Assembly (NCBI RefSeq): GCF_000619845.1
Contig: NZ_JHUX01000003.1
Coordinates: 90,001 to 122,000 of the forward strand
Direction: 5' to 3'
DNA from: Alkanindiges illinoisensis DSM 15370
GTDB lineage: Bacteria > Pseudomonadota > Gammaproteobacteria > Pseudomonadales > Moraxellaceae
Length of the DNA: 32,000 bases
Both the position numbers and the translations under genes were made by a program. Below the pieces are notes generated by a model. The model did no database searches and was not told where the DNA came from. It was given only the letters and a program-made list of their open reading frames with translations. Numbering within the stretch: position 1 is the stretch's first letter; each line of letters starts with the position of its first letter. This document shows positions 4,648 through 31,938 of this stretch, piece after piece.

Positions 4648-5814
<1,167 letters not shown>

Positions 5815-9277: not shown

Positions 9278-9481
9278 CTATAAATTCTGTGGTTAATGAT
9301 TAAGAAAATTTAATGCTGGGCGCATTTTATCGGCAAAAGATGGCATTTCAAGGTTAAATTTGGCTATATTAGCAGTCGGTTGAACCTTGAAAAGCTTTTT
9401 ATAGGGCGCTCACGGTACACATTTAAAATTAGAATCAGTCACTTATCCAGTGAACACCTAAAATATTAAAGGCATATTACT

Positions 9482-10147
9482 GTGAAGTATTATCGTTATA
9501 CCGATTTAGTCTGGTTAAATCGTTGCTTATACACTCTGCTTTTCCCCCCTGCCATATTGACCATCATTGGCCTGCTGCATGGTTTATACAGCTTGCAGCG
9601 CTTGCGTGGGCAGTCATCGCTGGCCGCACTGGACAGCTTGAATCCTGACCTGTCACACATGCTAATGCTGGATGGCATTTTGCGGGTTTCCCAGATTAGC
9701 CTCACCATCCTCATGCTGACTTTCTTTGCCTTCTGCTGGTTATATTACGCCAAGCGAAACCTGATTGCGCTGTTTCAGCAGGTGGAGCACTGTTTGATTA
9801 ATAATCTCAAGCAATTTGCCAACCTGTTTATCAGCATTTTCTTTTCCTTACGCATGATGCGGGAATTATGGCGCACCAGTATTCCCAAAAACCATCGTCA
9901 TGGTATTCAGCACTGGCTGGTTCCAGTGTGGTGGGTAATTCTGATTGCAGCCAATACCTGTAAAATCGTGGCAGTGGTGCTACTGGCTAAGGCCGCCACA
10001 GTAGGCGACTGGTTTAATGGCTATGAGTGGATGCTGGCCGCTTACTGCTTTTATTTTCCCTTGTATATTTTGACCTGGCGACTGGCAAACCAGTTGGCCC
10101 GTTACCAGAAAATCCAGTGGCAACAGCTGATGACCCAAAGCGCTTAA
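9482..10147 (+). CDS. hypothetical multi-pass membrane protein (possibly DUF4328-like)
   Basis: GTG start. The product has several hydrophobic segments and a Trp-rich HWLVPVWWVILIAA block. The family call is tentative and there is no clear SD. Confidence 0.55.
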   Translation: MKYYRYTDLVWLNRCLYTLLFPPAILTIIGLLHGLYSLQRLRGQSSLAALDSLNPDLSHMLMLDGILRVSQISLTILMLTFFAFCWLYYAKRNLIALFQQVEHCLINNLKQFANLFISIFFSLRMMRELWRTSIPKNHRHGIQHWLVPVWWVILIAANTCKIVAVVLLAKAATVGDWFNGYEWMLAAYCFYFPLYILTWRLANQLARYQKIQWQQLMTQSA

Positions 10148-10221
10148 GTAAAAAATAACTGCTTAAGCAATATCGCATCATCCACTGGTTTTAATGGGTT
10201 GATTAAAGTCTTGCCCAAAAA

Positions 10222-10253
10222 AGCCCGCTGCTCAATAGCATCGGGCTTTTTTT
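10222..10253. terminator. Bidirectional rho-independent terminator between convergent genes
   Basis: AAAAAAGCCCG-CTGCTCAATAGCA-TCGGGCTTTTTTT. The stem AGCCCG/CGGGCT has an A-run on one side and a T-run on the other. Confidence 0.65.
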
Positions 10254-10266
10254 ATTTTCTATATTC

Positions 10267-10779
10267 TTAACGTAAGCAGGCAGCCGTAACTTGCTTTAAA
10301 GTATTGGGACTGGCATTTAGCATGTCCATTCCTGCGGTATTACTGCTATTTGATAGTTTGGGCGTGGCAGACAAGCCAAATGAAGTGCGCTCACTATTAC
10401 CTAGCGGCACAGTGCTGTTATTGACGTTATTGTTAAAGCTTTCCTGCTGGTTGAGATTGGCAAATTCTTTTTGATCCAAAATATTAATGTTCACTGGCGT
10501 GTTCAGGGCTAATCCCAGTTCTTTGGCACAGGCTTTTTGCAGCTTCTGGCTGATTATCTGATCGGTAGTTTTGCTGTCCAGTGTATAGCTGATAATCACC
10601 TGATCCGGATTACTGGGTTCACGCTGATAACCGGTTTTTCCATTATAAGGTTGAATGCTTTGGCAGGCCGTAAGTCCCATAGCCGCCATCATTAAACCCA
10701 GTAGCGTAGCTTGTGACCACGCGGCCTGTTTTAGCCTTGTTTTAGCAATCCGATTGTTGTTCTCGTCATTTTTTATCAT
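10267..10779 (-). CDS. hypothetical lipoprotein
   Basis: Signal peptide with lipobox (LLGLMMAAMGLTAC|QS) and an Asn/Ser-rich C-terminal half. I recognise no family. Confidence 0.6.
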   Translation of the reverse strand: MIKNDENNNRIAKTRLKQAAWSQATLLGLMMAAMGLTACQSIQPYNGKTGYQREPSNPDQVIISYTLDSKTTDQIISQKLQKACAKELGLALNTPVNINILDQKEFANLNQQESFNNNVNNSTVPLGNSERTSFGLSATPKLSNSSNTAGMDMLNASPNTLKQVTAACLR

Positions 10780-10948
10780 GAGGGTTATCCTTTAATTGGG
10801 GTGGTAGGCAAAACGTTCAGAAATTATTGCACAAGATTTAAAAACAAAATTTCCTGAATTGTGCAAATGATGTCATTAAAAGCCGGCTGTACTAAAAATC
10901 AATTACTCTTAAAAAATGGATGATCTTGAAAAAGCAAATAGCAGGCAT

Positions 10949-10973
10949 AAAAAAGAGCCGCCAAAGCGACTCT
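10949..10973 (-). terminator. Rho-independent terminator of pckG
   Basis: On the minus strand, AGAGTCGC-TTTG-GCGGCTCT (8 bp including one G-U pair) is followed by TTTTT(T). Confidence 0.6.
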
Positions 10974-10990
10974 TTTAAAGCAACCTGAAA

Positions 10991-12823
10991 CTAGGCTACT
11001 TTTTCAACATTAATAGCCTGAACCAACTGTTCACGGCGCGCTTTCAACGCTTCTGGCACATGGTTGCCGATTTTATCAAACAGTTCAGCATGGCTCTCCA
11101 GCTCTGTGTTCCACTGTTCTGCACTTTGTGAGGTCACTTGTGCAAATTGTTCAGCAGTGAAGTCAGAACCTGTCCAGTTCAGTTGTTCATAGCTTGGTAC
11201 ATAGCCAATTGGGGTTTCAGTGGCTTCAGCACGGCCTTCGCAACGGTCAATGATCCATTCCAGAACGCGCATGTTCTGACCAAAACCTGGCCAGATAAAG
11301 TCGCCATTTTCATCACGACGGAACCAGTTCACATTGAAAATCTTGGGCAGCTTGGCACCGGATTGTTCCAGTTTTTCGCCCAGATTGAGCCAGTGCTGGA
11401 AGTAGTCACCCATGTTGTAGCCAGCAAATGGCAGCATGGCAAACGGATCACGACGAACAATACCTTGCTGGCCAACAGCAGCAGCAGTGGTTTCAGAACC
11501 CATGGTCGCAGCTTTATATACGCCATCCACCCAGTCAAATGCTTCTACCACTAAAGGTACAGTATCGGCACGACGTCCACCAAAGATAAAGGCAGAAATC
11601 GGGACACCGGCTGGGTTTTCCCAGTCCGCATCAATGGATGGACACTGGCTGGCAGATACGGTGAAGCGGGCATTTGGATGCGCAGCCTTGCTACCAGATT
11701 CAGGTGTCCACGGCTTGCCAGTCCAGTCTGTAAGACCTGCTGGTGCTTCTTTGCTTAAACCTTCCCACCATACTTCGCCATCTTCAGTCACCGCAACGTT
11801 GGTATAAATCACGTTCTGGTTCAGGGTAGCCATACAGTTCGGATTGGTTTTGGTATTAGTACCTGGCGCAACACCAAAGAAACCAGCTTCGGGGTTAATG
11901 GCATACAGCCGGCCATCTTCACCCGGCTTAATCCAGGCAATATCGTCACCGACGGTTTCAACTTTCCAGCCTTCAAAGCCAGCTGGTGGAATCAGCATGG
12001 CAAAGTTGGTCTTGCCACAGGCAGATGGGAATGCTGCCGCAACGTAATGTTTTTCACCTTGTGGACTGGTTAAGCCCAGAATCAGCATGTGTTCAGCCAG
12101 CCAGCCCTGATCGCGGCCCATGACTGAAGCAATGCGCAGCGCCAGACATTTTTTGCCCAGCAATGCATTACCACCGTAACCTGAACCATAAGACCAGATT
12201 TCACGGGTTTCAGGGTAGTGAACGATGTATTTGGTATCGTTGCACGGCCAGGTAACATCTTGCTGGCCAGCTTCAAGCGGCGCACCCACTGAATGTACGC
12301 ATGGCACAAACTCACCATCAGTACCCAGCACGTCGTACACCTCTTTGCCCATACGCGCCATCATACGCATATTGACAACTACATAAGGAGAGTCAGACAG
12401 CTCAATCCCAATGTGTGCAATATGGCTTCCCAGTGGACCCATGGAGAAAGGAACCACATACATGGTGCGGCCACGCATACAGCCTTCAAATAGACCATTC
12501 AAGGTTTGACGCATTTCAGCCGGATCAGTCCAGTGATTGGTTGCACCGGCATCTTCCTGCTTTTCAGAGCAGATAAAGGTACGGTCTTCAACACGGGCAA
12601 CGTCAGATGGGCTGGAATTAGCAAGATAGGAATTTGGATGTTTTTCTTGGTTTAGTTTGCGCATAGTGCCGTTTGCAACCATGAGGTCCAGCAGGCGTTG
12701 GTTTTCTTCTTCACTGCCGTCGCACCATTCAATGCGGTCAGGTTGCGTCAATGCTGCAATTTCTTCCACCCAAGCGATCAGTTTAGGGTGGCGAACGAAT
12801 TCAGGTGCGTTCACTTTGGTCAT
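10991..12823 (-). CDS. pckG: phosphoenolpyruvate carboxykinase (GTP)
   Basis: GTP-PEPCK blocks are present: [30 protein letters not shown]-like ([17 protein letters not shown]), [13 protein letters not shown] and FNVNWFR. I chose MTKVNAPEF (ATG 12823), not the 14-codon-longer tracked start at 12865. Confidence 0.92.
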
Positions 12824-13240
12824 GGTGAGGCCTATCTTTAATGTAGAAGCGCATATTCGGATCACGAATTACAGCGCCAGAAAAATTGTTGGTCTATTAA
12901 ACCACAAAAGCAGTTTTTATTTAAGATACCTTTTTATACCAATAAGTGACTTGCTATATTAAAAAATCTTTAAAAATCAATTGATTGATTTGTAAATTAG
13001 GCAAAGTATTTAGGTAAAATATGATTATGTTATACTCATCATTTTAAATTATGATATTAATAAGTTATTGTTAAAGTTAATTTTTATAGAAAATCTATAC
13101 TACGTAAAATTTTGTAGAGCCGATAAAGCGGTGTTTTTGGCCTAGGTTGTGGCAAATAATGCTAATAAATTTTGGATGAATCTCAGGTATGATTTTTCGG
13201 TTTTTAGATGAATCCCCTAAGTGGTAATAAGGAGCAGGTA

Positions 13241-14023
13241 ATGCATTTACAGGATAAAGTGGCCATTGTTACTGGTGGCGCGTCAGGTCTGGGCTTGGCA
13301 ACGGTAGAAGCCTTTGTAAACAAGGGCGCCAAGGTGGTGATTTTTGACCTGAACCAGCAGCAAGGCGATGAAGTAGCGAATCGTTTAAATGCGGCACATG
13401 GCGATAATGTGCGTGCTTTAGCCGTTGATGTAACCGATGAAGTGGCTGTGCATGCAGCGATTCAGCAAGTGGTGTCTCTGTTTGGTGGCTTACATATTTG
13501 TGTGAACTGCGCTGGCATTGGTTCGGCAACGCGTACCGTGGGTAAAAATGGGGCGCATCCGTTAAGCACGTTTGCCAAGGTAATTCAGATTAACCTGATT
13601 GGCACGTTTAACGTCACCCGTCTAGCGGCTGAAGCCATGCAGCATAATACACCGGTTAATGAGGATGGCGAGCGTGGCGTGATTATCAATACTGCATCCG
13701 TGGCAGCTTTTGATGGTCAGATTGGTCAGGTGGCGTATTCAGCATCTAAAGGCGGTGTTGTTGGGATGACCTTACCGTTAGCGCGTGATCTGTCAGTGAT
13801 TGGCGTGCGAGTAAACTGCATTGCACCGGGAATTTTTAATACCCCGCTGATGAATAGCTCACCTGATTCGGTGAAAATGCCATTGATTGAAATGACCCAG
13901 TTTCCCAAGCGTTTAGGACATCCGAGTGAATATGGCCAATTTGCCGTGCACATCGTTGAAAACAGCTTTATGAATGGTGAAACGATTCGTCTGGATGGTG
14001 CAATCCGTATGGCACCGCGCTGA
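13241..14023 (+). CDS. SDR-family 3-hydroxyacyl-CoA dehydrogenase type II-like oxidoreductase
   Basis: TGGASGLG cofactor motif, NCAG, and the catalytic YSASK. ATG 13241 is preferred because AAGGAG lies 6 nt upstream. The tracked start is 13208. Confidence 0.85.
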
Positions 14024-14147
14024 TTCGTAATGTTGCAATGACAGTGGGGTATCAGACTTCACTGTTATTGATAAGAATAAAAAATCATAATTGCTTTGTT
14101 GAGCCATCCATTTTAGGCTTAACGAAAATTTCAATCTTTAACCTATT

Positions 14148-14627
14148 ATGACCGAACCACAAACACCTGCCAGTTTTCATTTATGGATTGATGCCGATGC
14201 TATTCCTCGCATTTTGCGCGATATTATTTTTCGGGCATCGGATCGTCACTTGCTGGGCGTTACGTTTGTCGCCAATCAGCCACTGGGCATTAAGCCGTCT
14301 ATCCGGATTAAATCCATTCAGGTGACGCATGGAGCGGATAGTGCAGACCGTGAAATTGTCGAGCGTATGCAGGCTGGTGATATTGTGGTGACACAGGATA
14401 TTCCACTGGCCGCACAGGTGATTGAAAAAGGCGGCACTGCCATTCATCCGCGTGGAGATATTTACACACCGGACAATGTACGTGCACGTTTGCATTTGCG
14501 TGACTATATGGAAGTACTGCGTGGGGCAGGGGTACAGACTGGCGGGCCACCACCCATTTCGGATAAGGAAAAAAAGGCCTTTGCCGATTCGCTGGAAAAA
14601 ACCATTCAAAAGCAGAGGCGTCAATAA
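14148..14627 (+). CDS. YaiI/YqxD-family protein (UPF0178/DUF188)
   Basis: [10 protein letters not shown]...[41 protein letters not shown] is the conserved UPF0178 core. Confidence 0.85.
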
Positions 14628-14656
14628 ATTTACACTTCTGCTAAGGCGTAGAAGTG

Positions 14657-15190
14657 CTACTGTTGAGCGGATTTATTGAAATAGGTTTTAAGATCATGCT
14701 GAAGGTTAGATGATTGCTGATTAATCACACCAGAAATGATGTTATTGATTTTCCAGTTATTGTTAATTTTTAGAAATTCAAAAGTTACCTGAGTTGGTAC
14801 ATGAAAGTTTTCAAAATTTACTTTGAGATAACCTTTATTTTTATCGGTTATAAACTTTGAAATGGTTAGTTTTTTAATTTCATAATCTTGTCCAGCAACA
14901 ATAAAGTCGTGATCCAATGCACAGATTCCTTCCTGCTGCGTGCAAGTGTTTTCCAGTTTTAATAATTTGGTTAACTGAGGAGTAGCACGATGAATAATAA
15001 CATCCGTAAAATTTTCAGGTTGATTTATCGCTGCTGTGGAATGTTGTGCGGCGAGGTAGGATGCGTAGATTTGGCCAACCCAGACTTTTGGTTCACTGGT
15101 GGCAGAATAAGGCGCAGGAGCAGCATTACTTATTGATATGGTTGAAAGCAGTATTAAAGAAAATAAAGTGTAAAAATTTAAAATTTTCAT
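14657..15190 (-). CDS. secreted hypothetical protein (tentatively DUF3828-like)
   Basis: The start was moved to MKILNFYTLFSLILLSTISISNA|AP, which is a clear Sec signal. The LDHDFIVAGQDY block resembles DUF3828. The gene is AT-rich. Confidence 0.6.
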   Translation of the reverse strand: MKILNFYTLFSLILLSTISISNAAPAPYSATSEPKVWVGQIYASYLAAQHSTAAINQPENFTDVIIHRATPQLTKLLKLENTCTQQEGICALDHDFIVAGQDYEIKKLTISKFITDKNKGYLKVNFENFHVPTQVTFEFLKINNNWKINNIISGVINQQSSNLQHDLKTYFNKSAQQ

Positions 15191-15306
15191 ATTGATAGCT
15201 CTGACTAAAACAATTATATAAGTTTCGGATATTCCTAAAATGGAACGTTTGCTTTGTATCAGCAAACGAAAGTAAAAAACAGATGATTATGAATTAGGAC
15301 AGCGTG

Positions 15307-15510
15307 ATGGAAACCAGTCAGCTACTGCTCGGTGTACTATTTAGCTCAATTGGATTGGGTTACTTTATCTACGGCAAAAAGCAAAAAACCATTGTGCCAT
15401 TTTTATGTGGTCTGATATTAATGATTTTTCCGTATTTTGTGGAAAACACAGGATTGCTCATTTTAATTGGAGCGGTGATATCGGCAGTGCCTTATTTCAT
15501 CAGGTTATAA
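15307..15510 (+). CDS. small two-TM membrane protein (67 aa)
   Basis: Two hydrophobic helices separated by YGKKQK. AGGACAG lies upstream. The start could be GTG 15304 or ATG 15307. Confidence 0.5.
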   Translation: METSQLLLGVLFSSIGLGYFIYGKKQKTIVPFLCGLILMIFPYFVENTGLLILIGAVISAVPYFIRL

Positions 15511-15617
15511 ATATTTAAATTTGAGTATGTATACAAAGTTATTGGAAATTATTTTAATAAGCAGTATAAATCAACTAATAACAAATTAAACGTAGTAAGC
15601 CCTGTTAGGAGCTTGTA

Positions 15618-16575
15618 ATGATAGAAAAAATTGAAATAGCTCGCATCAAGATGCAAAGTCCTTTAACCAATGCGGTTGATGGGCAGGTGAGATGGTCACC
15701 TATAAAATCATTATGGATTTTCACCCATCTAGCCATTACTATCATTGGTGGAATCTATACCTTTTCTTTAGAGACTTTACTGGTATTTTTGTTTACGACT
15801 GCTGCAACGCTATGCTTTGGGCACTCATTAGGAATGCATCGTAAGCTAATCCATCACAGCTATCAGTGCCCTAAGATTTGTGCATTTAGGGACACTTGTT
15901 GGCCTGGCTGGACCTTTCGGGATGGTATACACCCATGATTTAAGAGATTGGGCACAACGGCAGGCAGATTGCCATTCTTATTTACGTCATGGCGAAACGA
16001 TCTGGAAAGATGGTTGGTGGCAATTATATTGTGATTTAAAGCTCAAGCATCCGCCTGTTTTTGTACCTGAAAAGTCTTTAAGAGATAATCCAGTTTACCG
16101 CTTTATGGAAAAAACATGGATGCTGCAACAGCTTCCATTACTGCTAATCTTATTTGCACTTGGAGGTATATCTTGGGTTATCTGGGGTATTTCTGCAAGA
16201 ATTGTGGTTTCTGTAACAGGGCATTGGCTGATTGGCTATTTTGCCCATAACCATGGTGAAATGGACAATGAGGTCGTAGGAGCGGCTGTGCAGGGGCATA
16301 ATGTAAAATGGGCTTCATACATTACCATGGGTGAATCCTGGCACAACAATCATCATGCCTATCCAGAATCAGCAATTTTAGGAATTTATGATAATCAGCC
16401 TGATCCAGGTTGGTGGGCGCTAAATGCATTAAGTAATTTAGGTTTGGTTTGGAATATTGTTTTGCCTGAGAATTTACCGTACCGCAAAAATCTGAAGGCA
16501 TTAACCTATAGGGCAATTGATGGCGCAGGTACGAAAGTACCTTATAAATGTCCTGTGTTAGGTTTATTACGTTAA
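15618..16575 (+). pseudogene. acyl-CoA (delta-9-type) fatty-acid desaturase family gene, split by a frameshift near 15876
   Basis: His box HRKLIHHSY (nt 15837-15863) is in the 15618 frame. The GESWHNNHHAYPESA box (nt ~16330-16375) is in the 15880 frame. The two ORFs overlap at 15880-15938 in different frames. Confidence 0.7.
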
Positions 16576-16582: not shown

Positions 16583-16614
16583 AATACCTTAATGAAAAAA
16601 TTCATTAAGGTATT
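16583..16614. terminator. Bidirectional hairpin between the convergent desaturase and speH genes
   Basis: Perfect 14-bp arms AATACCTTAATGAA / TTCATTAAGGTATT with loop AAAA. The right arm overlaps the speH stop codon (16605-16607). Confidence 0.55.
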
Positions 16615-16967
16615 CCTCTACTGTAATTACTTAATTTACTGTGTTCGGCTTCAAAAGCTTCTTGTAAATAGCTTAAAGCCACCTCAATCTGATGTTCTCC
16701 ACACATAAAAATGTCAATCGCGGCAAATTGATATTCTGGCCAAGTATGAATACTCATGTGCGATTCACTCAGCAGCAAAACACCAGTAACGCCCTGATAC
16801 AGGCCAAAAGAGTGAAAATGTGATTGCAAAACAGTGGCATTGGCAATTTTTGCAGCATGACGAAGTATAACTTCAATTTTTTCAGTATTGCAGGCCAGAT
16901 CAGCGTTAATCCCATAAAGATCTAATAAGCTATGCTGTCCAATTGCAATTAAATTCTGGCTATTCAT
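16605..16967 (-). CDS. speH: S-adenosylmethionine decarboxylase proenzyme, small SpeH (pyruvoyl) type
   Basis: GQHSLLDLYG, the self-cleavage site LLSESHMSIHTWPE, and AAIDIFMCG. I chose ATG 16967 (120 aa). The tracked GTG 17042 extension overlaps a better-placed small ORF. Confidence 0.85.
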   Translation of the reverse strand: MNSQNLIAIGQHSLLDLYGINADLACNTEKIEVILRHAAKIANATVLQSHFHSFGLYQGVTGVLLLSESHMSIHTWPEYQFAAIDIFMCGEHQIEVALSYLQEAFEAEHSKLSNYSRGIP

Positions 16968-16968
16968 A

Positions 16969-17115
16969 TTATTTATGCCAGCTTCCGGTATTGCTGTAAT
17001 GGCCGCCCCCTGAGGTGCTGGAGTTCCAGCCACGATTCTCACTGACCAGCCAGTAATTAAATAAGGTAGCTAATATAATAATGGCTACATAAAACCAGAA
17101 ATATGTCTCTTTCAT
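16969..17115 (-). CDS. candidate 48-aa single-TM peptide embedded in the operon
   Basis: Hand translation gives MKETYFWFYVAIIILATLFNYWLVSENRGWNSSTSGGGHYSNTGSWHK. Its ATG is 2 nt after the DUF4178 stop and its TAA is 1 nt before the speH ATG. It is below the ORF-track cutoff. Confidence 0.4.
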   Translation of the reverse strand: MKETYFWFYVAIIILATLFNYWLVSENRGWNSSTSGGGHYSNTGSWHK

Positions 17116-17117
17116 TA

Positions 17118-18725
17118 TTATGCTTCTTGATCAAATGGCTTTCCTAAAAGCACATAAATAAGATAACTGACCCCACAAACAATGAGCAGGCTAATCGTGC
17201 TGGAAAAACTCATAAAAAATGCCGGAAGATTAATTAATCCATAAGCTAGTAGCAAGAATATGGCGGCTCCTTTACCGGACTTTTGCTGGAATTTATTTTT
17301 ACGATTAACCCGATTAAGGGCAGCCCGATTACGCTGTTCTGTCGTTGTTCGCTGTCCTGCCGTTGCTGACAGCAATGTTGGTTTTTGAAACCATGTGGCT
17401 ACCTGCTGAGCGCTGACTGCCTTACTGCTACTCCATGCCATCTCGTACTTGCTATATTCAGCACAAACCTTGAGTTGTTCAGTGCCATAATCACTATAAC
17501 AGGTGATGTCATCAGGCTGAATCTGCCAGTAAAAAGCGCCTGCTGCATAATCAACCCGGCCCCCGTAATCATATAACTTGCCCATCAGTTGCCCATTATC
17601 ATTGTAGGGCTGTTGATTCAGGTTCAATTTTGGCCATTGATTTAAAGTGGTTGAGATTGCCCACTCATGCTGGGTTGTTTCAATTAGCCATAGAAAACCT
17701 TTTTTCGAGTTATACAGCAGGTATTCCAGCCAGCCCTCTGTAGTGATAGACATGCGGCTACTTTCACCCAACATGATGCGCCATGCATCGCTGCTTTCAA
17801 TTTCGGTTTTTTTAACCAGACCAATGACTGTCCAGCATACGTCATCAATCTTGCCAGTCTCACCCAGTGACAGGCTAAAGGCCTTTTCAGTCTTTTGGCG
17901 AAAATTATAGACTTCGATAACACGAGCCTGATCGGTGCTTAAATCAATATGCGCATGACAACTTTTGCAAATGGCATCCTCGGTCATCTGCTGCGCCCAG
18001 ATAATCCGGCTGCCACACTGTGGACACTGGCTGGCTTTTTGCTCACCTTTTAACTTGCCTGCCTGTTGCAGTATGGTGTCTTTGGAGCGCAAATTCTGGC
18101 AGTGAAGCGTATCCAGTGTGGTCACTGTGCCTGCGTAGACAATGGGCTGCTGGCCATTTTCACTAAAGTCCAGGGTAATAAAGCGCTGCTCGCTGCGAAA
18201 GTCTGCAACTTTTAAAGCCTGATCCTGTTTAACTGGATAGGGGAGTTCGCCCTGTGCATTGGCCTGAGCTGCTGTAGCTTGCCGCACATCGGCTGCCATA
18301 TAGCGTACGGTTTGATAGTTAAGGACGCTTTTGCCTGCTTTTAGCTGCTGAAACGATAGTTTATAGGCAGGGGGCAGCTTGCCTTGCAAGCGGGTAAACA
18401 CATACTGATCGCCTGATTCTGACAGCCAGCCATAGCTGCCATCACTGAACAGGGCATACCATTCATTCCATACGCCGCGGTCATAACGGATTTGTGAGCG
18501 GCCAATCAGGGTAAAGGCCTTGCCCTCAAAAGTGCCTGAGCTATACAGTTGAAGTGGAGAGTAATCCTCAATGATCGCGGATTTTTTACCACTATCAGTG
18601 AGGCTTTGCTCTGTGCGCACCAGTGAGCTTTGGCAATATTGGCACACCACCACCACTGCAGTTGCCGAATAGACTGCTACTGGTGCACCACAACAGGGGC
18701 AGACTGTTGAAAAAATTGAATCCAT
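17118..18725 (-). CDS. DUF4178 domain protein with two zinc ribbons and a C-terminal TM hairpin
   Basis: CPCCG...CQYC is followed by a DUF4178-like block (GKAFTLIGRSQIRYDRGVWNEWYALFSDGSYGWLSE). CPQCG...CKSCH is followed by a second block (WTVIGL...GWLEYLLYNSKKGFLWL). The C-terminus is hydrophobic (AAIFLLLAYGLINLPAFF...LLIVCGVSYLIYVLLG). Confidence 0.8.
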   Translation of the reverse strand: MDSIFSTVCPCCGAPVAVYSATAVVVVCQYCQSSLVRTEQSLTDSGKKSAIIEDYSPLQLYSSGTFEGKAFTLIGRSQIRYDRGVWNEWYALFSDGSYGWLSESGDQYVFTRLQGKLPPAYKLSFQQLKAGKSVLNYQTVRYMAADVRQATAAQANAQGELPYPVKQDQALKVADFRSEQRFITLDFSENGQQPIVYAGTVTTLDTLHCQNLRSKDTILQQAGKLKGEQKASQCPQCGSRIIWAQQMTEDAICKSCHAHIDLSTDQARVIEVYNFRQKTEKAFSLSLGETGKIDDVCWTVIGLVKKTEIESSDAWRIMLGESSRMSITTEGWLEYLLYNSKKGFLWLIETTQHEWAISTTLNQWPKLNLNQQPYNDNGQLMGKLYDYGGRVDYAAGAFYWQIQPDDITCYSDYGTEQLKVCAEYSKYEMAWSSSKAVSAQQVATWFQKPTLLSATAGQRTTTEQRNRAALNRVNRKNKFQQKSGKGAAIFLLLAYGLINLPAFFMSFSSTISLLIVCGVSYLIYVLLGKPFDQEA

Positions 18726-18761
18726 CAGGTTTTCCGCTAAGACCTCTGCAATTAGTCCAAA

Positions 18762-19799
18762 TTACTGACTCAATAATTTTTTCAAGACTTCCGCTTTGGC
18801 ATCATCATAATCCTGCTGGGAAATCAGGTTTTGTTCCAGCAAGGTTTTCAGGGTTGCCAGTTTTGCCTGAGGATTTTCATTGCCTGATGGCTGTGTTGCG
18901 GTGGCCGCTTGCGGATTATGCGCAGGTGTTTGGCCCGATAGAGAAGCATTCATAGCATTGCCCATCAGTTGTCCCATGCCCATGCCAGCCGCCAAACCTG
19001 CACCAATACCTGCAAGTCCACCTTCATTCTGGGCAGCCAGCGGAATACTGGTGGCTGTCTGGTACTGGGTATAGCGGTTCATGTCGCCAATAATGCCCAT
19101 TGAAATACGTTCTTCCAGCTTCTTTTGCAGCGTTTCGGGCAGGGTAATACTTTCTACGGTAAAGCTGTCCAGTAATAGGCCCAGACGCTCGAATGAAGGC
19201 GCCAGCACTTCAGTCATCTTCTGGGACAGCAACACCTGATTGGCTGCCATGTCAATAAAGGGAATGTCCGAGTTACCAAAGGCACTACTTAAATGGGTCA
19301 CAATGATATTGCGCAGTTGTTCTTCCAGCATAGCACCTGTGTATTCACTGCCAACACCGCTAACTTCACGAAAAAATAGCGCAGGATTGACCAGCCGGTA
19401 GCTATACATGCCAAAGGAACGCAGGCTCACCATGCCAAAATCCTGATCGCGAACAGTAACAGGTTGCGCCGTACCCCAGCGTCTGGACAGTTGCAATCGA
19501 GTATTAAAAAAATACACATCCGATTTAAAGGGTGATTCAAATAGCTTGTCCCAGTGTTTCAGGTTGGTCAGCACCGGAAGTGTACGGGTATTTAAAGTAT
19601 ACAAACCCGGCGCAAGGGCATCGGCAGCAATCCCTTCATTCACAAACAATGCCATTTGTGATTCACGCACCGTCAAACTGGCGCCGTTTTGAATTTCCTC
19701 ATCCTGCATGGGAAAGCGCCACATCAACAGCTCGTTATCGGGTTTTGCCCACTGGATGACGTCAATAAACTGTTTCTTGATAAAGCTGCCGAGTGACAT
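18762..19799 (-). CDS. SPFH/Band-7 family protein (YdjI / virion-core-like subgroup) with a C-terminal SHOCT-like domain
   Basis: The N-terminal ~270 aa look like the SPFH subgroup (FIDVIQW...LMWRFP...I.NGA.L.V.ESQ.A.F...G). A Gly/Ala/Met-rich linker follows, then KLATLKTLLEQNLISQQDYDDAKAEVLKKLL (SHOCT pattern). TAGGAGAA provides a strong SD. Confidence 0.85.
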   Translation of the reverse strand: MSLGSFIKKQFIDVIQWAKPDNELLMWRFPMQDEEIQNGASLTVRESQMALFVNEGIAADALAPGLYTLNTRTLPVLTNLKHWDKLFESPFKSDVYFFNTRLQLSRRWGTAQPVTVRDQDFGMVSLRSFGMYSYRLVNPALFFREVSGVGSEYTGAMLEEQLRNIIVTHLSSAFGNSDIPFIDMAANQVLLSQKMTEVLAPSFERLGLLLDSFTVESITLPETLQKKLEERISMGIIGDMNRYTQYQTATSIPLAAQNEGGLAGIGAGLAAGMGMGQLMGNAMNASLSGQTPAHNPQAATATQPSGNENPQAKLATLKTLLEQNLISQQDYDDAKAEVLKKLLSQ

Positions 19800-19880
19800 T
19801 GTTGTTCTCCTAAAGGTGATGCAAGTCAGTTGTTATAATCAAATAAATTCAATAAACCCATATCATGGGATATGTGTAGT

Positions 19881-20279
19881 TTAACTCAGGCAAGCGGCAT
19901 TGATTAGCCCAACAGACAGTGACAGGGAGCCAAACAATGCACCCACTGCAATATTATTGTTCTGCAAGTGCATGCTGGCATCCCGAATCAGGCGACTGCC
20001 AGCAAAGAAAATCAGGATTTGCACTAGCGCTGCTGCAAACGACCAGACCAGAAAGCTGGGAATATTCATGGTATGCATGATGCTGGAAGCCAGGGTAATA
20101 CTAAAGCCAATCTGTGCACCGCCAAATGATAAGGCACAGGCAATATTACCTTCACGGATGAGAGTAATTTCCTTAACCGGAGTGACCTTAACGTAAACCA
20201 CCGCAAAAATCATGAGTACAAACAAGCTTAAGCCCATGTATTTTAGATATAAAAGATATTGTGTCAGTATGATTGTCAT
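19881..20279 (-). CDS. DUF350 (YjfL-family) four-TM membrane protein
   Basis: A 132-aa protein with four hydrophobic helices and the EITLIREGNIACALSFGGAQIG motif typical of DUF350. Confidence 0.8.
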   Translation of the reverse strand: MTIILTQYLLYLKYMGLSLFVLMIFAVVYVKVTPVKEITLIREGNIACALSFGGAQIGFSITLASSIMHTMNIPSFLVWSFAAALVQILIFFAGSRLIRDASMHLQNNNIAVGALFGSLSLSVGLINAACLS

Positions 20280-20420
20280 TTAAGTTCCCACAAATGGGTA
20301 TTGTCAGTATTTGCCTCAGCCCATCGTTACCTAAGATGTGCCTTGCAGTAATGGGAGTCAGGCGATGTGAATCAAGCTATGTTAAGCTACTTTATAATAA
20401 ACAAATGATTAATATTTTAA
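20280..20420. promoter_or_regulatory. Shared 141-bp divergent control region of the two arms of the polyamine/SPFH module
   Basis: Inferred from divergent gene geometry only. I could not identify a specific operator. Confidence 0.4.
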
Positions 20421-21932
20421 ATGCTTAATCGAACTTTAATTATTTCAGTCTTTGTGGTGGCATCCTGTGGGTTGGCGTATGAACTGGTTGCTGCTGCACT
20501 GGCCAGTTACCTGTTGGGGGATTCTGTTTTACAGTTTTCATCCATTATCGGGGCTTATTTGTTTGCGATGGGAATTGGCGCCCATTTGACCCGTTATATT
20601 AAAGATGAAGATATTTTACACCGTTTTGTGGATATTGAGCTTCTGGTTGGCTTGATTGGCGGACTATCGGCACTGCTGCTATTTATTATTTTTTCATTTG
20701 CCGATGCACCATTTCGCATGGTGCTGTATGCGGTGGTTTTGCTGATTGGGACTGTGGTCGGCATGGAAATTCCACTGGTAATGCGGGTTTTAAACCAGCA
20801 TCAGGCCGAGTTTAAGGAAATTGTTAGCCGGGTGCTCACCTTTGATTATCTGGGTGCACTGGCGGTTTCACTGTTGTTTCCACTGATTTTGGCACCAAAA
20901 CTGGGCATGGCACGGACAGCATTACTGTTTGGGATCTTAAACGTACTGGTTGCCATGCTGACGATCCGGGTATTTAGGCACCAATTGCAGTATGCCAGAC
21001 AGCTTCAACTCAAGGCATCGGTGGTATTACTGATGCTGGTAACCGGTTTTTTATTTGCTGACCGACTCACTTTCTGGGCTGAACAATCCTATTTTGGCGA
21101 TCCAGTGGTTTATAGCAAAAGTACGCGCTACCAGCGTATTGTCCTGACGCGCTGGCATGATGATGTGCGCTTGTTTTTAAACGGCAATTTGCAGTTTTCG
21201 TCGAGGGATGAGCATCGCTACCATGAGGCGCTAGTGCTGCCTGCAATGGAAATGGTCCCACATGCCAGACAGGTGCTGATCTTGGGTGGTGGTGATGGTT
21301 TGGCTGCCCGGGAAGTTTTAAAATATCCAAAGGTTGAAAAAATTACCCTGATTGACCTTGATCAGCAAATGACTGATTTATTTAAACAGTCAGCAACTCT
21401 GGCCCAGTTGAATCACAATTCCTTTCGTAATCCTAAAATGCACATTGTGCATGCTGATGCAGGACAATGGCTGGAAAGCAATCGACAACAGTTTGATGTG
21501 ATTATTATTGATTTACCTGATCCCTCCAATTTTTCACTGGGGAAGCTGTATTCAGTGCCGATGTATCGCATGGTACTCCGGCATTTGTCTGAACATGGCA
21601 AGCTGGTAGTGCAGTCAACCTCACCCTATTTTGCGCCACATGCCTTCTGGTGCGTAGTAGAAACCCTAAAAACAGCCGGAGCTTATACCAAACCCTATCA
21701 TACCTATGTGCCTTCATTTGGTGAGTGGGGATTTGTGCTGGCAGGGCGAATTAATGATTTTAAGATTCCACGCAGTTATCAGGTGCCAACCCGTTTTCTG
21801 GATCAGGCATCCACTCAGGATATGTTTATTTTTCCCAAGGATATGCAGCCCAAACAGGTGCAGCCCAATTATCTGAATACACAGGCACTGGTCAGCTATT
21901 TTGAGCAGGACTGGCACCAGAACATACGCTAA
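20421..21932 (+). CDS. speE: membrane-anchored polyamine aminopropyltransferase (spermidine-synthase family, about 7 N-terminal TM helices)
   Basis: Seven hydrophobic segments lie in aa 1-215. A catalytic domain follows with YQRIVL, HEALV, VLILGGGDGLAAREVLKY, IIIDLPDP and SFGEWGF. Confidence 0.88.
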   Translation: MLNRTLIISVFVVASCGLAYELVAAALASYLLGDSVLQFSSIIGAYLFAMGIGAHLTRYIKDEDILHRFVDIELLVGLIGGLSALLLFIIFSFADAPFRMVLYAVVLLIGTVVGMEIPLVMRVLNQHQAEFKEIVSRVLTFDYLGALAVSLLFPLILAPKLGMARTALLFGILNVLVAMLTIRVFRHQLQYARQLQLKASVVLLMLVTGFLFADRLTFWAEQSYFGDPVVYSKSTRYQRIVLTRWHDDVRLFLNGNLQFSSRDEHRYHEALVLPAMEMVPHARQVLILGGGDGLAAREVLKYPKVEKITLIDLDQQMTDLFKQSATLAQLNHNSFRNPKMHIVHADAGQWLESNRQQFDVIIIDLPDPSNFSLGKLYSVPMYRMVLRHLSEHGKLVVQSTSPYFAPHAFWCVVETLKTAGAYTKPYHTYVPSFGEWGFVLAGRINDFKIPRSYQVPTRFLDQASTQDMFIFPKDMQPKQVQPNYLNTQALVSYFEQDWHQNIR

Positions 21933-21953
21933 GGCTAAAAACCAGAAATTTGC

Positions 21954-23615
21954 ATGAAAATACCCTATTTTTCCCGACGTCGATTTATGGCTCATGCATT
22001 GGGCTTAAGTGGTGCAACCCTGATTCCCTGGTCGATTTATCAGCATAAATTCGGTGGCTTGCCGCCAGTTAATGTGGATTATCCGGGCATGGCAGCGGGG
22101 CATTATTTGCGGGATCACCCGATACATCATAAACCTGTGACTGAGCATCAATGCGATATCCTCATTTTAGGGAGTGGCGCCGCAGCACTAACTGCCGCAT
22201 GGCAGCTAAAGAAACAGGGAAAAATTGGATTTGTGATGCTGGAAGGACCAGAACCCAATGGTAACAATGCAGGGGGGTATGACCGTGAACTCAGCTTTCC
22301 AACAGGTGCGCACTACCTGAGCTTACCATCTGAACAGTCCAGTCATGTGCGGGAATTGCTGTCTGATCTAGGCATTCTTAAGCAAAATATGGATCAGGCC
22401 AGACCTGCGTATGATGAACGGCTGCTAACCAATGCGCCTGAGGGGCGGCTATTATATCAGGGTCAGTGGCTTAGTGATTTATTGCCTGCGCAGGATCAGG
22501 ACAGCATCCGTTTTTTTAAATTGGTTCACCAGTTAGGCCGTTCGACAGGGCAGGATAAGCAGCCCTTGTTTGCAATTCCAGTGGCGCTTTCTTCACAGGA
22601 TGCACAGTGGCGACAACTGGATCAGCTCACTTTTAGGCAATGGCTGGATCAAAATGACTATCACTCAGCTACGTTGCGTTGGTATCTGAATTACTGCTGT
22701 CGGGATGATTACGGGCAGGGAATTGATCAGGTATCGGCTTGGGCAGGACTGCATTACTTTGCCTCACGGGTGCAGTCCCAAGCGGAACATGCCAGTTATC
22801 TGGTGTGGCCTGATGGCTTGGCAGGTTTGTCCAATAAAATCAGGGCCTATATCAATTTTCAGGGCACAAATATTCAGGAATTTCAATCTCAGCCCATACC
22901 ACAGGCAATGGCTGGTTTTGCCACCAAGATTATTGAACATCCAGATTATGTTGAAGTATGGACAGCAAGCTATTACGGCCAGCAGATACATACTGCCTGT
23001 TTTAAAGCCAGACAGGTGATTTGTGCTATGCCGCTCTATATGGCAGCCCGCCTTGTTGAGAATATTCAGCAGTATGGTTTTGATCCCAGCCAGCACTTAC
23101 CTGCGTATGCGCCTTGGCTGGTGTCCAATTTTACGTTAAAGCAATATCCTGAAGAACTAAAAAATGAGCCACTGGCCTGGGATAATGTGGTGTATGAGGG
23201 CAAAGGACTGGGTTATGTGGTTGCAACCCATCAGTGGATACGGGTGGCGAAACCACCGCGTACTGTCTTCACTGCCTACACAGCGCTTGATTTTGACAAG
23301 CCTGACAAGATTCGTTACTGGTTGCGTCATGCGAGCAAGAAGGAGCTGCTTGAAAAAGCCAGTGATGACTTGCTGCAAGTGTATGGCAAGCGATTTTGGC
23401 AATGTGTTGAGCATGTTAATATCACCGTCCGTGGTCATGCAATGGCAACTCCTTTACCCCGACGCTTTGAAAATACGGGATTGCTTGCCCTACAGCAACA
23501 TCACTCACGTCTGTTATTTGCGCACGCTGATTTATCAGGCTATTCGATTTTTGAGGAAGCTGCCTGGTGGGGTTATCAGGCTGCAAAACATATCATTAAG
23601 CAGGACTTGGGGTAA
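21954..23615 (+). CDS. FAD-dependent oxidoreductase (amine-oxidase-like fold) with a twin-arginine signal
   Basis: The N-terminus MKIPYFSRRRFMAHALGLSGATL has the Tat consensus S-R-R-x-F plus a hydrophobic region. The dinucleotide-binding motif is DILILGSGAAALTAAWQL. It starts 21 nt after speE. Confidence 0.75.
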   Translation: MKIPYFSRRRFMAHALGLSGATLIPWSIYQHKFGGLPPVNVDYPGMAAGHYLRDHPIHHKPVTEHQCDILILGSGAAALTAAWQLKKQGKIGFVMLEGPEPNGNNAGGYDRELSFPTGAHYLSLPSEQSSHVRELLSDLGILKQNMDQARPAYDERLLTNAPEGRLLYQGQWLSDLLPAQDQDSIRFFKLVHQLGRSTGQDKQPLFAIPVALSSQDAQWRQLDQLTFRQWLDQNDYHSATLRWYLNYCCRDDYGQGIDQVSAWAGLHYFASRVQSQAEHASYLVWPDGLAGLSNKIRAYINFQGTNIQEFQSQPIPQAMAGFATKIIEHPDYVEVWTASYYGQQIHTACFKARQVICAMPLYMAARLVENIQQYGFDPSQHLPAYAPWLVSNFTLKQYPEELKNEPLAWDNVVYEGKGLGYVVATHQWIRVAKPPRTVFTAYTALDFDKPDKIRYWLRHASKKELLEKASDDLLQVYGKRFWQCVEHVNITVRGHAMATPLPRRFENTGLLALQQHHSRLLFAHADLSGYSIFEEAAWWGYQAAKHIIKQDLG

Positions 23616-29382: not shown

Positions 29383-31938
29383 GTGATGATGATATTGCTG
29401 GGCTTTATTGCCGGCGTAATAACGATTGGCTATCACAATATTTTTTCTGCATTACTGCCGGTTTCTGGCTGGCTATCAAGCGGCTTTTTATTGCTGCTGA
29501 TGATAGTGGTGTTGACACGTGTTCCTGTGCGGTATTACCTGATTTTGCATCCTGTGATTGATACCATGAGTAGTCTGGCCTTATTTGGTCTGGCTTTTAT
29601 ATTCGGTACAGGTTATGCGCACTGGCAACTCGATCATGCCTTGCAGCAGCGCTTAAGCGAGCCAGTTGAACAAACTGCACTTGTGCGTGTGGTTGGGATT
29701 AGCGATGGCGTAGGCGAAGATTGGCGCCAAGTGGTTGAAACTGTTGCAGTAGAGAATCGGTCACAATCAGGACAACCGTCACAAGAAAGATGGTTGCTGT
29801 ATGGCGCATTTGACTGGACTAAGCACCAATCGATTGCGCCACCAGACATGCAGCCGGGGCAATTATGGCAGGTTAGGGTCAAATTAAAACCAGCACACAG
29901 TAATGCATCACCGGGTGCATTTGATGTGGAAAAGTGGCTGTTGCAGCAGCATATTACTGCCACGGGAACCCTTCAGACAGCGCAGCGATTAACCCCACAG
30001 CAACTTCAGCACTTACAATTAAAGCCTGAGTCATTATTACAGCAGCTACAAAATGTGCTACAGCGCGAGCGATTGCGCATTCGCCAGCATTTTATTCAGT
30101 GGGATGCTAACCTAAGCCACGCTGCTAAAAATGCTGTTGCTGAAAGCCCTGTAGATGAAAGCCTTGTAGATAAAAATCATGCTGTTAAAAACAATGCGGC
30201 CAAAGGCGTACTGTTGGGCCTGCTGACTGGTGATCGTAGCCTGATTGATGCAGACACCACCTTGCTTTACCAACAAATGGGCATTAGTCACCTGCTGGCC
30301 ATTTCCGGCCCGCATGTCATTTTGGCCGCCTTAATCATCACTTGGTTGCTGCAAAAACTGCTTGATCGTTTCCCGGCATTGTATTTAAAAGCTGAACGCC
30401 GCCGCTGGTTATTACCCGTTTTTATGCTGGTGGTGATGCTATACGCAGGCCTTGCCGGGTTTGATATTCCAGCACAGCGCACGGTGCTCATGGTTGGTCT
30501 GGCTGCGGGGTTATTATGGTTTCGTCAGCGCTGGAGCCGCACGTGCATTTTACTGATGTCAGCAAGTATTTTACTGTTGCTTGATCCATTGGCAATCTTG
30601 TCCGCAGCATTCTGGTTGTCCTTTGGTGCGGTTGCGATTTTACTCAGTATGAGTGTGCCACAACCGGGTCAACATGAAACCAGCGTTTCGCATAGCCAAA
30701 TAAAACAGCGGCAAATAAAAGTAATGCAGTTTGTGCAATTGCAATGGCGACTGTTTGTATTGCTGTCCCCGCTGGTATTACTGAGCTTTGCGAAAATTTC
30801 ATGGCTGGCGCCGCTGGTCAATTTGCTGGCTATTCCCTTGTTAAGTGCAGTGGTATTGCCTGTTAATTTACTGGCCTATGCGGTGTCCATGCTGTCACCT
30901 GCGCTGGCCGACATGATCTGGCAACTGGCGTTATGGCTGCTTGATATTTTCCATGTCCTATTGCGTTTCTTAGCAACTACTTTTCCAAAAGCCCTGCAAC
31001 CGTTTTATTTAAGCCCGCTGCAACTGTTGGCATTGTTTGCCATGCTGGTAGTTTTAATATTGCCCAAAGGCCTGCTGCCGCGATGGTGGATGGTGTTTTT
31101 AATGATTCCAGCCTGCTATCCGGCGCGGCCTGTGGCTCCTTTGATCGTTCAGGTGCTGGATGTGGGGCAGGGCTTAAGTGTGATATTGAAAACCCGCAAA
31201 CATGCCATGCTGGTTGATACTGGCGCAAAGCTGGGTCACAGCAGTATGGGAGACAAAGTGGTGATTCCTGCCTTGCAGGCACAGGGCATTCAACGTCTGG
31301 ACAAGCTGATGCTCACCCATCTGGACAGTGACCATAGCGGTGGTGCGCCAGCCATATTGCAGCAACTAGCCGTTAGCCAGCTCACCAGCAGTGAAACATT
31401 TGCGCCGTATCCCACTTATCTATGTGAAGCCGGGCAAAGCTGGCAATGGGATGGCGTACAGTTTCGTGTTCTGTCACCATTACCGGCCCATTTTAGGGCT
31501 ACCGGGAAAATTACAAACTCAAAAAATGAAAAGTCCTGTGTGCTCATGGTTGAGGTACCAGCACAGGCTGATATTCCGGCACAGCGTGTGCTAATTATGG
31601 GAGATGCCGGGCTTTACACTGAGTTTATGCTGCAACGGCAGGCTATACCGCTACAGGCCGATTTATTGATTTTGGGTCATCATGGCAGCCAGCACAGCAG
31701 TTCCAGCCCGTTTCTGTCCAGTGTACAACCGCAGCGTGCGGTGGTTTCTGCGGGCTATCTCAACCGTTATGGTCATCCAAAACCAATTGTACTGGCGCGC
31801 CTGAATGAGCAAGGTATAGCAGTTGATTCCACCATTGATAGCGGCACACTAACGTATGTGCTGGGTCAGCAGAAATACCTCAAACCCCAGCGCTATCGTG
31901 ATAAAAATCTATGGTTGCAACGGATTTTTGATCAATGA
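29383..31938 (+). CDS. comEC: DNA internalization-related competence protein ComEC/Rec2
   Basis: N-terminal TM and OB-like region, a polytopic competence domain (GISHLLAISGPHV) and a C-terminal metallo-beta-lactamase domain (VLDVGQGLS, THLDSDHSGG, GHHGS). The start could be GTG 29383 or ATG 29386/29389. Confidence 0.88.
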   Translation: MMMILLGFIAGVITIGYHNIFSALLPVSGWLSSGFLLLLMIVVLTRVPVRYYLILHPVIDTMSSLALFGLAFIFGTGYAHWQLDHALQQRLSEPVEQTALVRVVGISDGVGEDWRQVVETVAVENRSQSGQPSQERWLLYGAFDWTKHQSIAPPDMQPGQLWQVRVKLKPAHSNASPGAFDVEKWLLQQHITATGTLQTAQRLTPQQLQHLQLKPESLLQQLQNVLQRERLRIRQHFIQWDANLSHAAKNAVAESPVDESLVDKNHAVKNNAAKGVLLGLLTGDRSLIDADTTLLYQQMGISHLLAISGPHVILAALIITWLLQKLLDRFPALYLKAERRRWLLPVFMLVVMLYAGLAGFDIPAQRTVLMVGLAAGLLWFRQRWSRTCILLMSASILLLLDPLAILSAAFWLSFGAVAILLSMSVPQPGQHETSVSHSQIKQRQIKVMQFVQLQWRLFVLLSPLVLLSFAKISWLAPLVNLLAIPLLSAVVLPVNLLAYAVSMLSPALADMIWQLALWLLDIFHVLLRFLATTFPKALQPFYLSPLQLLALFAMLVVLILPKGLLPRWWMVFLMIPACYPARPVAPLIVQVLDVGQGLSVILKTRKHAMLVDTGAKLGHSSMGDKVVIPALQAQGIQRLDKLMLTHLDSDHSGGAPAILQQLAVSQLTSSETFAPYPTYLCEAGQSWQWDGVQFRVLSPLPAHFRATGKITNSKNEKSCVLMVEVPAQADIPAQRVLIMGDAGLYTEFMLQRQAIPLQADLLILGHHGSQHSSSSPFLSSVQPQRAVVSAGYLNRYGHPKPIVLARLNEQGIAVDSTIDSGTLTYVLGQQKYLKPQRYRDKNLWLQRIFDQ

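Follow-up and report, generated by a model that had tools for sequence, protein, structure and literature searches.

The subject of this analysis is a set of seven closely spaced genes in the genome of Alkanindiges illinoisensis DSM 15370 (Moraxellaceae), located on contig NZ_JHUX01000003.1 in a stretch of 32,000 nucleotides (positions 90,001 to 122,000) that is here called the window and that is numbered from its first letter. The genes are arranged in two divergent units (Table 1). The minus-strand unit encodes a DUF350 protein, an SPFH protein, a DUF4178 protein, a small transmembrane (TM) peptide and an S-adenosylmethionine (AdoMet) decarboxylase (AdoMetDC), with gaps of 81, 36, 2 and 1 nt between successive open reading frames (ORFs), while the plus-strand unit encodes an aminopropyltransferase fused to TM helices (TM-SpeE) and, after 21 nt, a flavoprotein. 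The gaps of 1-2 nt suggest that translation may be coupled in the minus-strand unit. In a first-pass annotation of the window these genes had been regarded as one dedicated module, and the seven ORFs, their gaps and the divergent spacer were found in the ORF list exactly as claimed there. All seven products were searched against the Pfam and NCBIfam profile hidden Markov models, and TM segments were assigned by hydropathy.

Table 1. Coordinates of the features of the divergent locus in the window.
Feature	Position	Strand	Remarks
AdoMet decarboxylase, class 1b (SpeD/SpeH type)	16605-16967	-	120 aa counted from ATG
48-aa single-TM peptide	16969-17115	-	Gly/Ser-rich tail, invariant His-Lys end; from ORF and conservation
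DUF4178 protein, 535 aa	17118-18725	-	zinc ribbon, DUF4178, zinc ribbon, DUF4178, C-terminal TM hairpin
SPFH protein, 345 aa, Band_7_1 subfamily	18762-19799	-	Gly/Ala-rich hydrophobic patch, SHOCT-like C-terminal helix
DUF350 (YjfL-like) protein, 132 aa	19881-20279	-	four TM segments
Divergent intergenic region, 141 bp	20280-20420	.	presumed shared promoters; from ORF coordinates
TM-SpeE aminopropyltransferase, 503 aa	20421-21932	+	N-terminal 7-TM domain, PRK03612 type
Flavoprotein, 553 aa, flavin amine-oxidase fold	21954-23615	+	twin-arginine signal (SRRRF)

The recurrence of this gene set was assessed by a census anchored on the DUF4178 protein, in which one genome per GTDB species was scanned by pattern, the best 80 loci were fetched and their gene order was determined by tblastn with the seven window proteins. 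A relative of the DUF4178 protein was found in at least 573 species-representative genomes. Of the 80 loci, 39 have all six large genes in identical order and on identical strands; where the flanking DNA was long enough (58 loci), 36 do so. The conserved loci belong to Neisseriales (N. wadsworthii, Snodgrassella, Jeongeupia, Chitinilyticum), Burkholderiales (Ralstonia, Cupriavidus, Janthinobacterium, Massilia, Saezia), Rhodocyclales (Zoogloea, Uliginosibacterium) and Gammaproteobacteria, the latter with Cardiobacterium (Cardiobacteriaceae), Wohlfahrtiimonas, Agitococcus and representatives of the Moraxellaceae. In 60 of the 80 related loci the AdoMetDC gene directly follows the DUF4178 gene. 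Together with the rearranged variants described below, these counts bear out the earlier proposal of a single dedicated module, and they show that it recurs across lineages. Long apparent fusion ORFs of TM-SpeE, flavoprotein and AdoMetDC in GC-rich loci were dismissed as artefacts of start-codon choice.

Rearranged loci were found as well. On a Novosphingobium plasmid the genes for SPFH, DUF4178, TM-SpeE, oxidase and AdoMetDC are all located on one strand. Plasmid MCP49-600 of Alteromonas mediterranea carries a variant (8941-15599) with genes for TM-SpeE, speD, a hypothetical protein, TelA, DUF4178, a lipoprotein and an 8-TM DUF350 protein, in which the TM-SpeE is 33% identical to that of the window and the DUF4178 protein has a single domain; the slot of the SPFH or PspA protein is held there by TelA, a 'toxic anion resistance' protein. 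On megaplasmids of the Ralstonia solanacearum complex, such as that of strain SL3730 (1543384-1559670), the divergent halves are separated by about 9.5 kb. This interval holds an IS3 transposase and a hypothetical gene, together with five genes for a Liv-type (branched-chain-amino-acid) ABC importer codirectional with the TM-speE gene. The flavoprotein and TM-SpeE genes remain adjacent in rearranged loci. Some Neisseriaceae and Cardiobacterium genomes have a DUF4178 gene without any partner within 10 kb, and in Neisseriaceae bacterium B1 the TM-SpeE gene stands alone, about 130 kb from the DUF4178 gene. Moreover, five loci from Neisseria, among them those of N. flavescens and N. subflava, contain downstream of the AdoMetDC gene a second DUF4178 paralogue (35-37% identity), itself followed on the same strand by a flavoprotein gene, with no TM-SpeE gene within 10 kb.

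The small 48-aa ORF between the DUF4178 and AdoMetDC genes had been treated as incidental in the first-pass annotation, an assessment that the census reversed. In 70 of 81 loci this position is occupied by a homologue, which is either a free ORF of 45-70 aa or extends the DUF4178 protein at its C-terminus. In it, a short basic N-terminus is followed by a single TM helix and then by a tail rich in Gly/Ser (63% G+S), whose end is always [G/S][G/S][G/W]-His-Lys-stop, with His and Lys conserved in 70 of 70 cases. In nine loci, including those of N. wadsworthii, Snodgrassella, K. kingae and N. subflava, the peptide is fused behind the TM hairpin of the DUF4178 protein; as the zinc-ribbon and DUF4178 domains are taken to be cytoplasmic, this fusion should place the His-Lys (HK) tail in the periplasm. 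The 11 loci without the peptide are of the Kingella/Conchiformibius/Alysiella type, and in these the rest of the module is likewise absent or almost entirely so; two of the 11 lie on very short contigs. A simple scan of the two alphaproteobacterial variants found no HK peptide. The 48-aa peptide had no match in Pfam or NCBIfam, and a search of a library of 1.84 billion proteins gave 10 matches, eight of them of 45-48 aa, with no informative new fusion partner. In the automatic gene calls of a near-identical public contig the ORF is skipped and the AdoMetDC gene is stretched across it. The 48-aa ORF is thus newly recognised here as a core component of the module, and it is among its most conserved parts.

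The decarboxylase matched PF02675 (AdoMet_dc; E = 1.6e-34) and the equivalog TIGR03330 (124 bits against a cutoff of 75.7). Its motif SE-S-HMSIH-TWPE...C provides, at the correct spacing, equivalents of S63, H68 and C83 of Thermotoga maritima AdoMetDC, the processing serine, the histidine and the cysteine of that enzyme (PMC10407285). Since it has no signal peptide, the protein is expected to be cytoplasmic.

The aminopropyltransferase matched Spermine_synth over residues 264-440 (E = 1.5e-36) and NF002956/PRK03612 with 690 bits against a cutoff of 472, while it stayed under the cutoffs of the soluble SpeE equivalogs (TIGR00417, 124 against 250; NF002010, 160 against 260). Due to its fusion to seven TM helices it differs from the classical soluble cytoplasmic enzyme that converts putrescine to spermidine. 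Among solved structures, its nearest relatives are the T. thermophilus polyamine aminopropyltransferase 1UIR and the thermospermine synthase 6BQ2. The catalytic motifs YHE, GGGDG and D-x-P-D-P are invariant among the homologues, the invariant residues being Q258, D263-E264, Y267-H268-E269, G289-G293 and D364-x-P-D367-P368. Seven helices were located within residues 1-225 by hydropathy and, in agreement, by an AlphaFold2 (AF2) model, in which a long TM7 enters the catalytic domain. Even in homologues of no more than 33% identity, the buried residues E21, E116 (GxEIP), D142 and N174 do not vary, and from this conservation the TM domain probably conducts a cationic substrate or product. Across 46 homologues Lys and Arg occur only in the N-terminus and in loops 2-3, 4-5 and 6-7 (means of 3.1, 1.8, 4.0 and 2.1, respectively), with none in loops 1-2, 3-4 and 5-6. 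Given seven helices and this positive-inside bias, the N-terminus would be located inside and, by parity, the catalytic domain on the periplasmic side of the membrane, a topology that is newly proposed here and that we infer from charge distribution and model.

The flavoprotein itself reached only NAD_binding_8 in Pfam and did not reach PF01593 (Amino_oxidase) at E <= 0.01, although PF01593 is present in many of its homologues. A sequence search against solved structures returned dinucleotide-binding-motif matches only; in the N-terminal GxGxxG motif, G73 and G75 are invariant. The AF2 model (pLDDT, a per-residue confidence measure, 88.9) was most similar in Foldseek to the bacterial monoamine oxidase 8P84/9H5P, which has also been solved with putrescine, the putrescine oxidase 2YG3 and the spermidine dehydrogenase SpdH (7D9J), with E of about 1e-19 to 1e-20, a probability of 1.00 and a target-normalised TM-score of at most 0.73; in sequence it shares only 12-17% identity with SpdH and putrescine oxidase. 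As modelled, the protein is thus a two-domain FAD amine oxidase in fold, and it may act on a polyamine. The twin arginines R8 and R9 of its SRRRF motif are at least 90% conserved in homologues, several of which are named by NCBI as twin-arginine translocation (Tat) signal proteins. With a conserved Tat signal the flavoprotein should be periplasmic, and the twin-arginine flavoprotein of the earlier annotation was thereby borne out and specified. In the near-identical contig the gene call begins at Met12 (542 aa) and loses SRRRF, the affected stretch being 21954-21986 (+); since SRRRF is conserved in homologues, the 553-aa start is considered correct. SpdH of Pseudomonas aeruginosa is also Tat-signalled (PMC11107197).

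Three further proteins complete the minus-strand unit. The DUF4178 protein matched PF13785 in two stretches (E = 1.2e-18) and has two hydrophobic segments at about 486-531 by hydropathy. Its closest homologue is 95% identical, and WP_026469918.1 belongs to the 90% cluster of that homologue. Double-zinc-ribbon matches were under the Pfam thresholds, but the zinc ribbons were accepted because eight Cys, arranged as four CxxC pairs (C9, C12, C28 and C31; C234, C237, C253 and C256), are invariant across the family; a sequence search against solved structures gave zinc-ribbon noise only. Homology to E. coli YjfK (DUF2491) was considered and rejected as not significant (hhalign probability 1.3%). 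An EYLL(Y/L) motif (W/Y-EYLL-(Y/L)...W..S) can be aligned between residues 330-362 of the DUF4178 protein and residues 178-207 of YjfK, which is only a lead towards a possible remote homology of DUF4178 and DUF2491. The SPFH protein matched PF13421 (Band_7_1) with E = 6.8e-71. Its SHOCT match of 17.7 bits was under the cutoff of 27; despite this score the SHOCT-like tail was accepted because the C-terminal helix is conserved in homologues, this helix and the Gly/Ala-rich hydrophobic patch being kept across 60 of them. No TM segment was detected in the SPFH protein by hydropathy, including at the N-terminus, and no solved structure was found for it by sequence. The DUF350 protein matched PF03994 (E = 1.9e-30) and is 35% identical to E. 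coli YjfL over the full length. Among the domain calls of the first-pass annotation, all those with profile matches were therefore confirmed, whereas SHOCT and the double zinc ribbon remained sub-threshold in Pfam and were backed by family conservation.

The surroundings of the module are those of an ordinary chromosome. By Pfam, the flank at 2-14023 encodes a CheA/CheB-like pair, FolD, PEPCK and SDR. The features noted at 2-4127 (+) and 7334-7524 (-), namely a CheA-like hybrid kinase (Hpt, HATPase, CheW, receiver) and a CheB methylesterase at the left end as well as two tRNA genes, are unrelated to the module. The absence of a PspA gene that had been noted earlier was upheld, as neither the flank 2-14023 (Pfam) nor the genes called on the near-identical contig (about 15700-29800) include a PspA, the stretch 29383-31938 being unscanned; within the same flank ORFs and contig gene calls there was no regulator gene either. 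A fatty-acid desaturase-like gene at 15618-16575 (+) is split into two ORFs (15618-15938 and 15880-16575) that overlap and differ in frame. The genes called on the near-identical contig show the identical split, which may represent a frameshift or a pseudogene. An Rfam search of the window yielded only the two tRNAs, with no riboswitch or RNA element in the 141-bp control region. A PADLOC scan for anti-phage defence matched solely the generic methyltransferase domain of SpeE, and the idea of a defence system was dropped on this account.

The gene set has been described before. In the comparative-genomics study of Ravi et al. 2024 (mSystems, PMC11237479) an operon group is reported that combines a 7TM-spermine synthase, YjfL/DUF350, DUF4178 and CesT-PspA, together with a PspA-free operon form that has Band-7/SHOCT, AdoMetDC and a polyamine oxidase; its supplement lists versions from Shewanella oneidensis (SO_3765) and Mycobacterium tuberculosis (Rv2597-Rv2601). 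The same source mentions 'aminopropylation of other substrates' and cites for this Li et al. 2019, on linkages of AdoMetDC genes and non-polyamine substrates. In the literature searched, DUF4178 was found in Ravi et al. 2024 only, and essentially no experimental literature on this family thus exists. The earlier statement that the gene combination is uncharacterised accordingly holds with respect to experiments, but not with respect to comparative genomics, by which the set has already been described and interpreted, so that it is not new. The window module is another member, from the Moraxellaceae, of the operon kind predicted by Ravi et al., and its function is likewise predicted. In the work of Li and colleagues, clusters of this kind reportedly yielded no polyamine on heterologous expression.

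The module is best read as an aminopropyl-transfer and oxidation system that is coupled to the inner membrane and has an SPFH scaffold, that is, as the PspA-free Band-7/SHOCT form; this reading is held to be somewhat better than an even bet. In it, the cytoplasmic pyruvoyl AdoMetDC would make decarboxylated AdoMet, and the 7-TM aminopropyltransferase would place the aminopropyl group on an amine acceptor at or across the inner membrane, its product being made at this membrane or moved over it. The Tat-exported flavin amine oxidase, judged by fold and signal peptide, would then work in the periplasm, oxidising or cleaving either the aminopropylated product or the precursor of that product. By analogy with YdjG/YdjH (SamG/H), which recruit YdjI (SamI), the DUF4178 protein, the HK peptide and the DUF350 protein may assemble into a membrane complex to which the soluble SPFH-SHOCT protein is recruited, and the gene context suggests that the chemistry could in this way be tied to the state of the membrane. 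A role in envelope stress, as put forward in the first-pass annotation, was overstated, having been deduced from gene context alone.

The module is probably not the bulk spermidine pathway of the cell. The polyamines reported for Ralstonia pickettii comprise putrescine along with 2-hydroxyputrescine, and spermidine is absent from the list (PMC7857480); other Ralstonia species carry the full module, R. pickettii itself not being among the genomes examined, and taken together this argues against bulk spermidine synthesis. On the same grounds the earlier claim that the module makes a polyamine lacks proof and is open to some doubt.

Several observations weigh against a membrane-coupled transfer and oxidation system with a periplasmic transferase. 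The scattering of the genes in some Neisseriaceae shows that tight operon coupling is not obligatory. Matches in a scan for sigma-70 promoters and terminators were no commoner than in shuffled sequence, so that the scan is uninformative on the regulation of the module. TM7 of the transferase has merely about 15-17 strongly hydrophobic residues, and if it did not span the membrane, the catalytic domain would be cytoplasmic. Finally, a periplasmic aminopropyltransferase would depend on extracytoplasmic decarboxylated AdoMet, for which no precedent is known to us.

A different acceptor is conceivable, namely the C-terminal Lys of the peptide or of the DUF4178 extension. Its epsilon-amine would be aminopropylated to give a spermidine-like group on a membrane-anchored peptide, and the Tat oxidase would trim or reverse this modification. 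A C-terminal lysine is chemically a carboxy-cadaverine. The invariance of the HK end (70/70) and the position of the peptide between the DUF4178 and AdoMetDC genes are in keeping with such a role, as are the DUF4178 fusions, which set the tail opposite the cytoplasmic zinc-ribbon domains, and the predicted periplasmic location of both the transferase domain and the oxidase. YjfC of the sister yjf system and YgiC are peptide-spermidine ligases, which offers an analogy, and YjfM and the Alteromonas lipoprotein are likewise Gly/Ser-rich at the C-terminus. The analogy is imperfect, since YjfM ends in Gly-Gly instead of Lys and YjfC is cytoplasmic whereas the YjfM tail is predicted to be periplasmic. 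The phrase 'aminopropylation of other substrates' of Ravi et al. could be read in the same sense. The case is purely inferential, no precedent for protein aminopropylation by decarboxylated AdoMet is known to us, and the two alphaproteobacterial variants showed no HK peptide in the simple scan; polyamination of the peptide tail is therefore regarded as doubtful. Its extended version, in which a ribosomal peptide would be polyaminated with decarboxylated AdoMet that passes through the 7-TM domain to a periplasmic transferase, under control of a DUF4178/SPFH/DUF350 complex, is rather improbable. With regard to the tails themselves, the yjfM product (8388-9026) and the Alteromonas lipoprotein (13192-14724) have Gly/Ser/Arg-rich ends, ...ARGHWGG and ...RNRGPSSGK, respectively, that resemble the HK tail in composition.

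Ordinary synthesis followed by export was also considered. Here, spermidine, norspermidine or thermospermine would be made from a free diamine and delivered to the periplasm or the cell surface for protection of the envelope, and the oxidase would clear the excess. Polyamine export for envelope protection has reportedly been proposed for PA4773/PA4774 of P. aeruginosa. The intact catalytic motifs of SpeD and SpeE, the fact that the closest solved structures of TM-SpeE are true polyamine or thermospermine synthases, the nearest folds of the oxidase, which act on putrescine or spermidine, and the buried acidic TM residues, suited to polyamine transport, would all be accommodated. The invariant HK peptide and the obligatory DUF4178 and DUF350 partners would nevertheless be left unexplained, the unlisted spermidine of R. 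pickettii (PMC7857480) fits poorly with the module in Ralstonia species, and Ravi et al. cite Li et al. 2019 for a possible aminopropylation of non-polyamine substrates; synthesis and export thus appear unlikely. The chance placement of a normal speD/speE pair beside unrelated membrane-protein genes, for which it can merely be said that each domain family occurs in other contexts too, has a negligible probability and is excluded by the identical order and strands in 39 of 80 loci, from 39 species of several orders of Beta- and Gammaproteobacteria, besides the core retained in rearranged variants and the gaps of 1-2 nt.

The interpretation as a membrane-coupled aminopropyl-transfer and oxidation system concerns a widespread module. 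Relatives of its DUF4178 protein are encoded in human-associated Neisseria, Kingella, Eikenella and Cardiobacterium, in the bee symbiont Snodgrassella and in plant-pathogenic Ralstonia, and a distant version of the module exists in M. tuberculosis. It bears on how membrane scaffolds of the SPFH/PspA type are connected to small-molecule chemistry, and on the question of polyamine biology in the title of Li et al. 2019, as AdoMetDC and a membrane aminopropyltransferase are found in apparently spermidine-less bacteria. The HK tail and its predicted periplasmic placement make the AdoMetDC/transferase question directly testable. If polyamination of the peptide were true, it would explain a 'polyamine-independent role for AdoMetDC', would be the first protein aminopropylation from decarboxylated AdoMet and the first enzyme outside the cytoplasm to depend on an AdoMet derivative, and would unite the module with the YjfC ligase operons, each of the two then being a different route to a periplasmic tail tipped with a polyamine.

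Among known systems, the operons of Ravi et al. are the closest, since every component of the window module occurs in one or other of their descriptions. The window module has a 7-TM-fused synthase, DUF350 and DUF4178 proteins, Band-7/SHOCT in place of CesT-PspA, and AdoMetDC with an amine-oxidase fold, and it thereby blends features of their 'second' and 'third' operon groups. Their account comprises one or two comparative-genomics sentences that do not contain the HK peptide, the Tat signal or a periplasmic side of the transferase, and no Moraxellaceae examples are listed in the sections seen. The operons of M. tuberculosis (Rv2597-Rv2601) and Shewanella (SO_3765), as far as they are given in this source, share the triad of DUF4178, DUF350 and a TM-anchored spermine/spermidine synthase and differ in accessory genes (DUF2617 and DUF4247 in the former; CesT-PspA, a Ctha_1186 lipoprotein and an RHH regulator in the latter); SPFH, AdoMetDC or oxidase is listed in neither operon string.

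The classical SpeD/SpeE pathway shares the catalytic residues of class 1b AdoMetDC and the catalytic motifs of SpeE, and differs in that the window SpeE is joined to seven TM helices. P. aeruginosa SpdH resembles the flavoprotein in fold and Tat signal and differs by low sequence identity. From the canonical Psp system the module is set apart by the lack of PspA/IM30 among the seven products, in the scanned flanks and in the Pfam-annotated calls of the near-identical contig. The background given in the first-pass annotation on YdjI and PspA and on E. coli yjfIJKLMC proved correct. In B. subtilis, YdjI is required for the localisation of PspA, with help from YdjG/H (PMC8581546); YdjGHI have been renamed SamGHI (2026 preprint, bioRxiv 10.64898/2026.02.06.704340). 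By description, the pspA-ydjGHI (samGHI) operon is similar in that a zinc-ribbon and TM protein encoded adjacently recruits a soluble SPFH protein, and different in that it includes PspA and a TPM-domain protein and is without polyamine enzymes, DUF350 or DUF4178. The E. coli operon yjfIJKLMC has in common with the window the DUF350 protein YjfL, a polyamine-handling enzyme paired with a membrane-remodelling protein, and, in YjfM, a periplasmic protein with a Gly/Ser-rich C-terminal tail. PspA-family YjfJ and CesT-like YjfI are found there in place of SPFH, DUF2491 and DUF1190 in place of DUF4178 and the peptide, and no amine oxidase is present. The place of AdoMetDC and aminopropyltransferase is taken by the ATP-grasp enzyme YjfC, whose RefSeq name is peptide-spermidine ligase and which, with YgiC, was characterised as such (Pederick et al. 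2023, as reported by citing papers).

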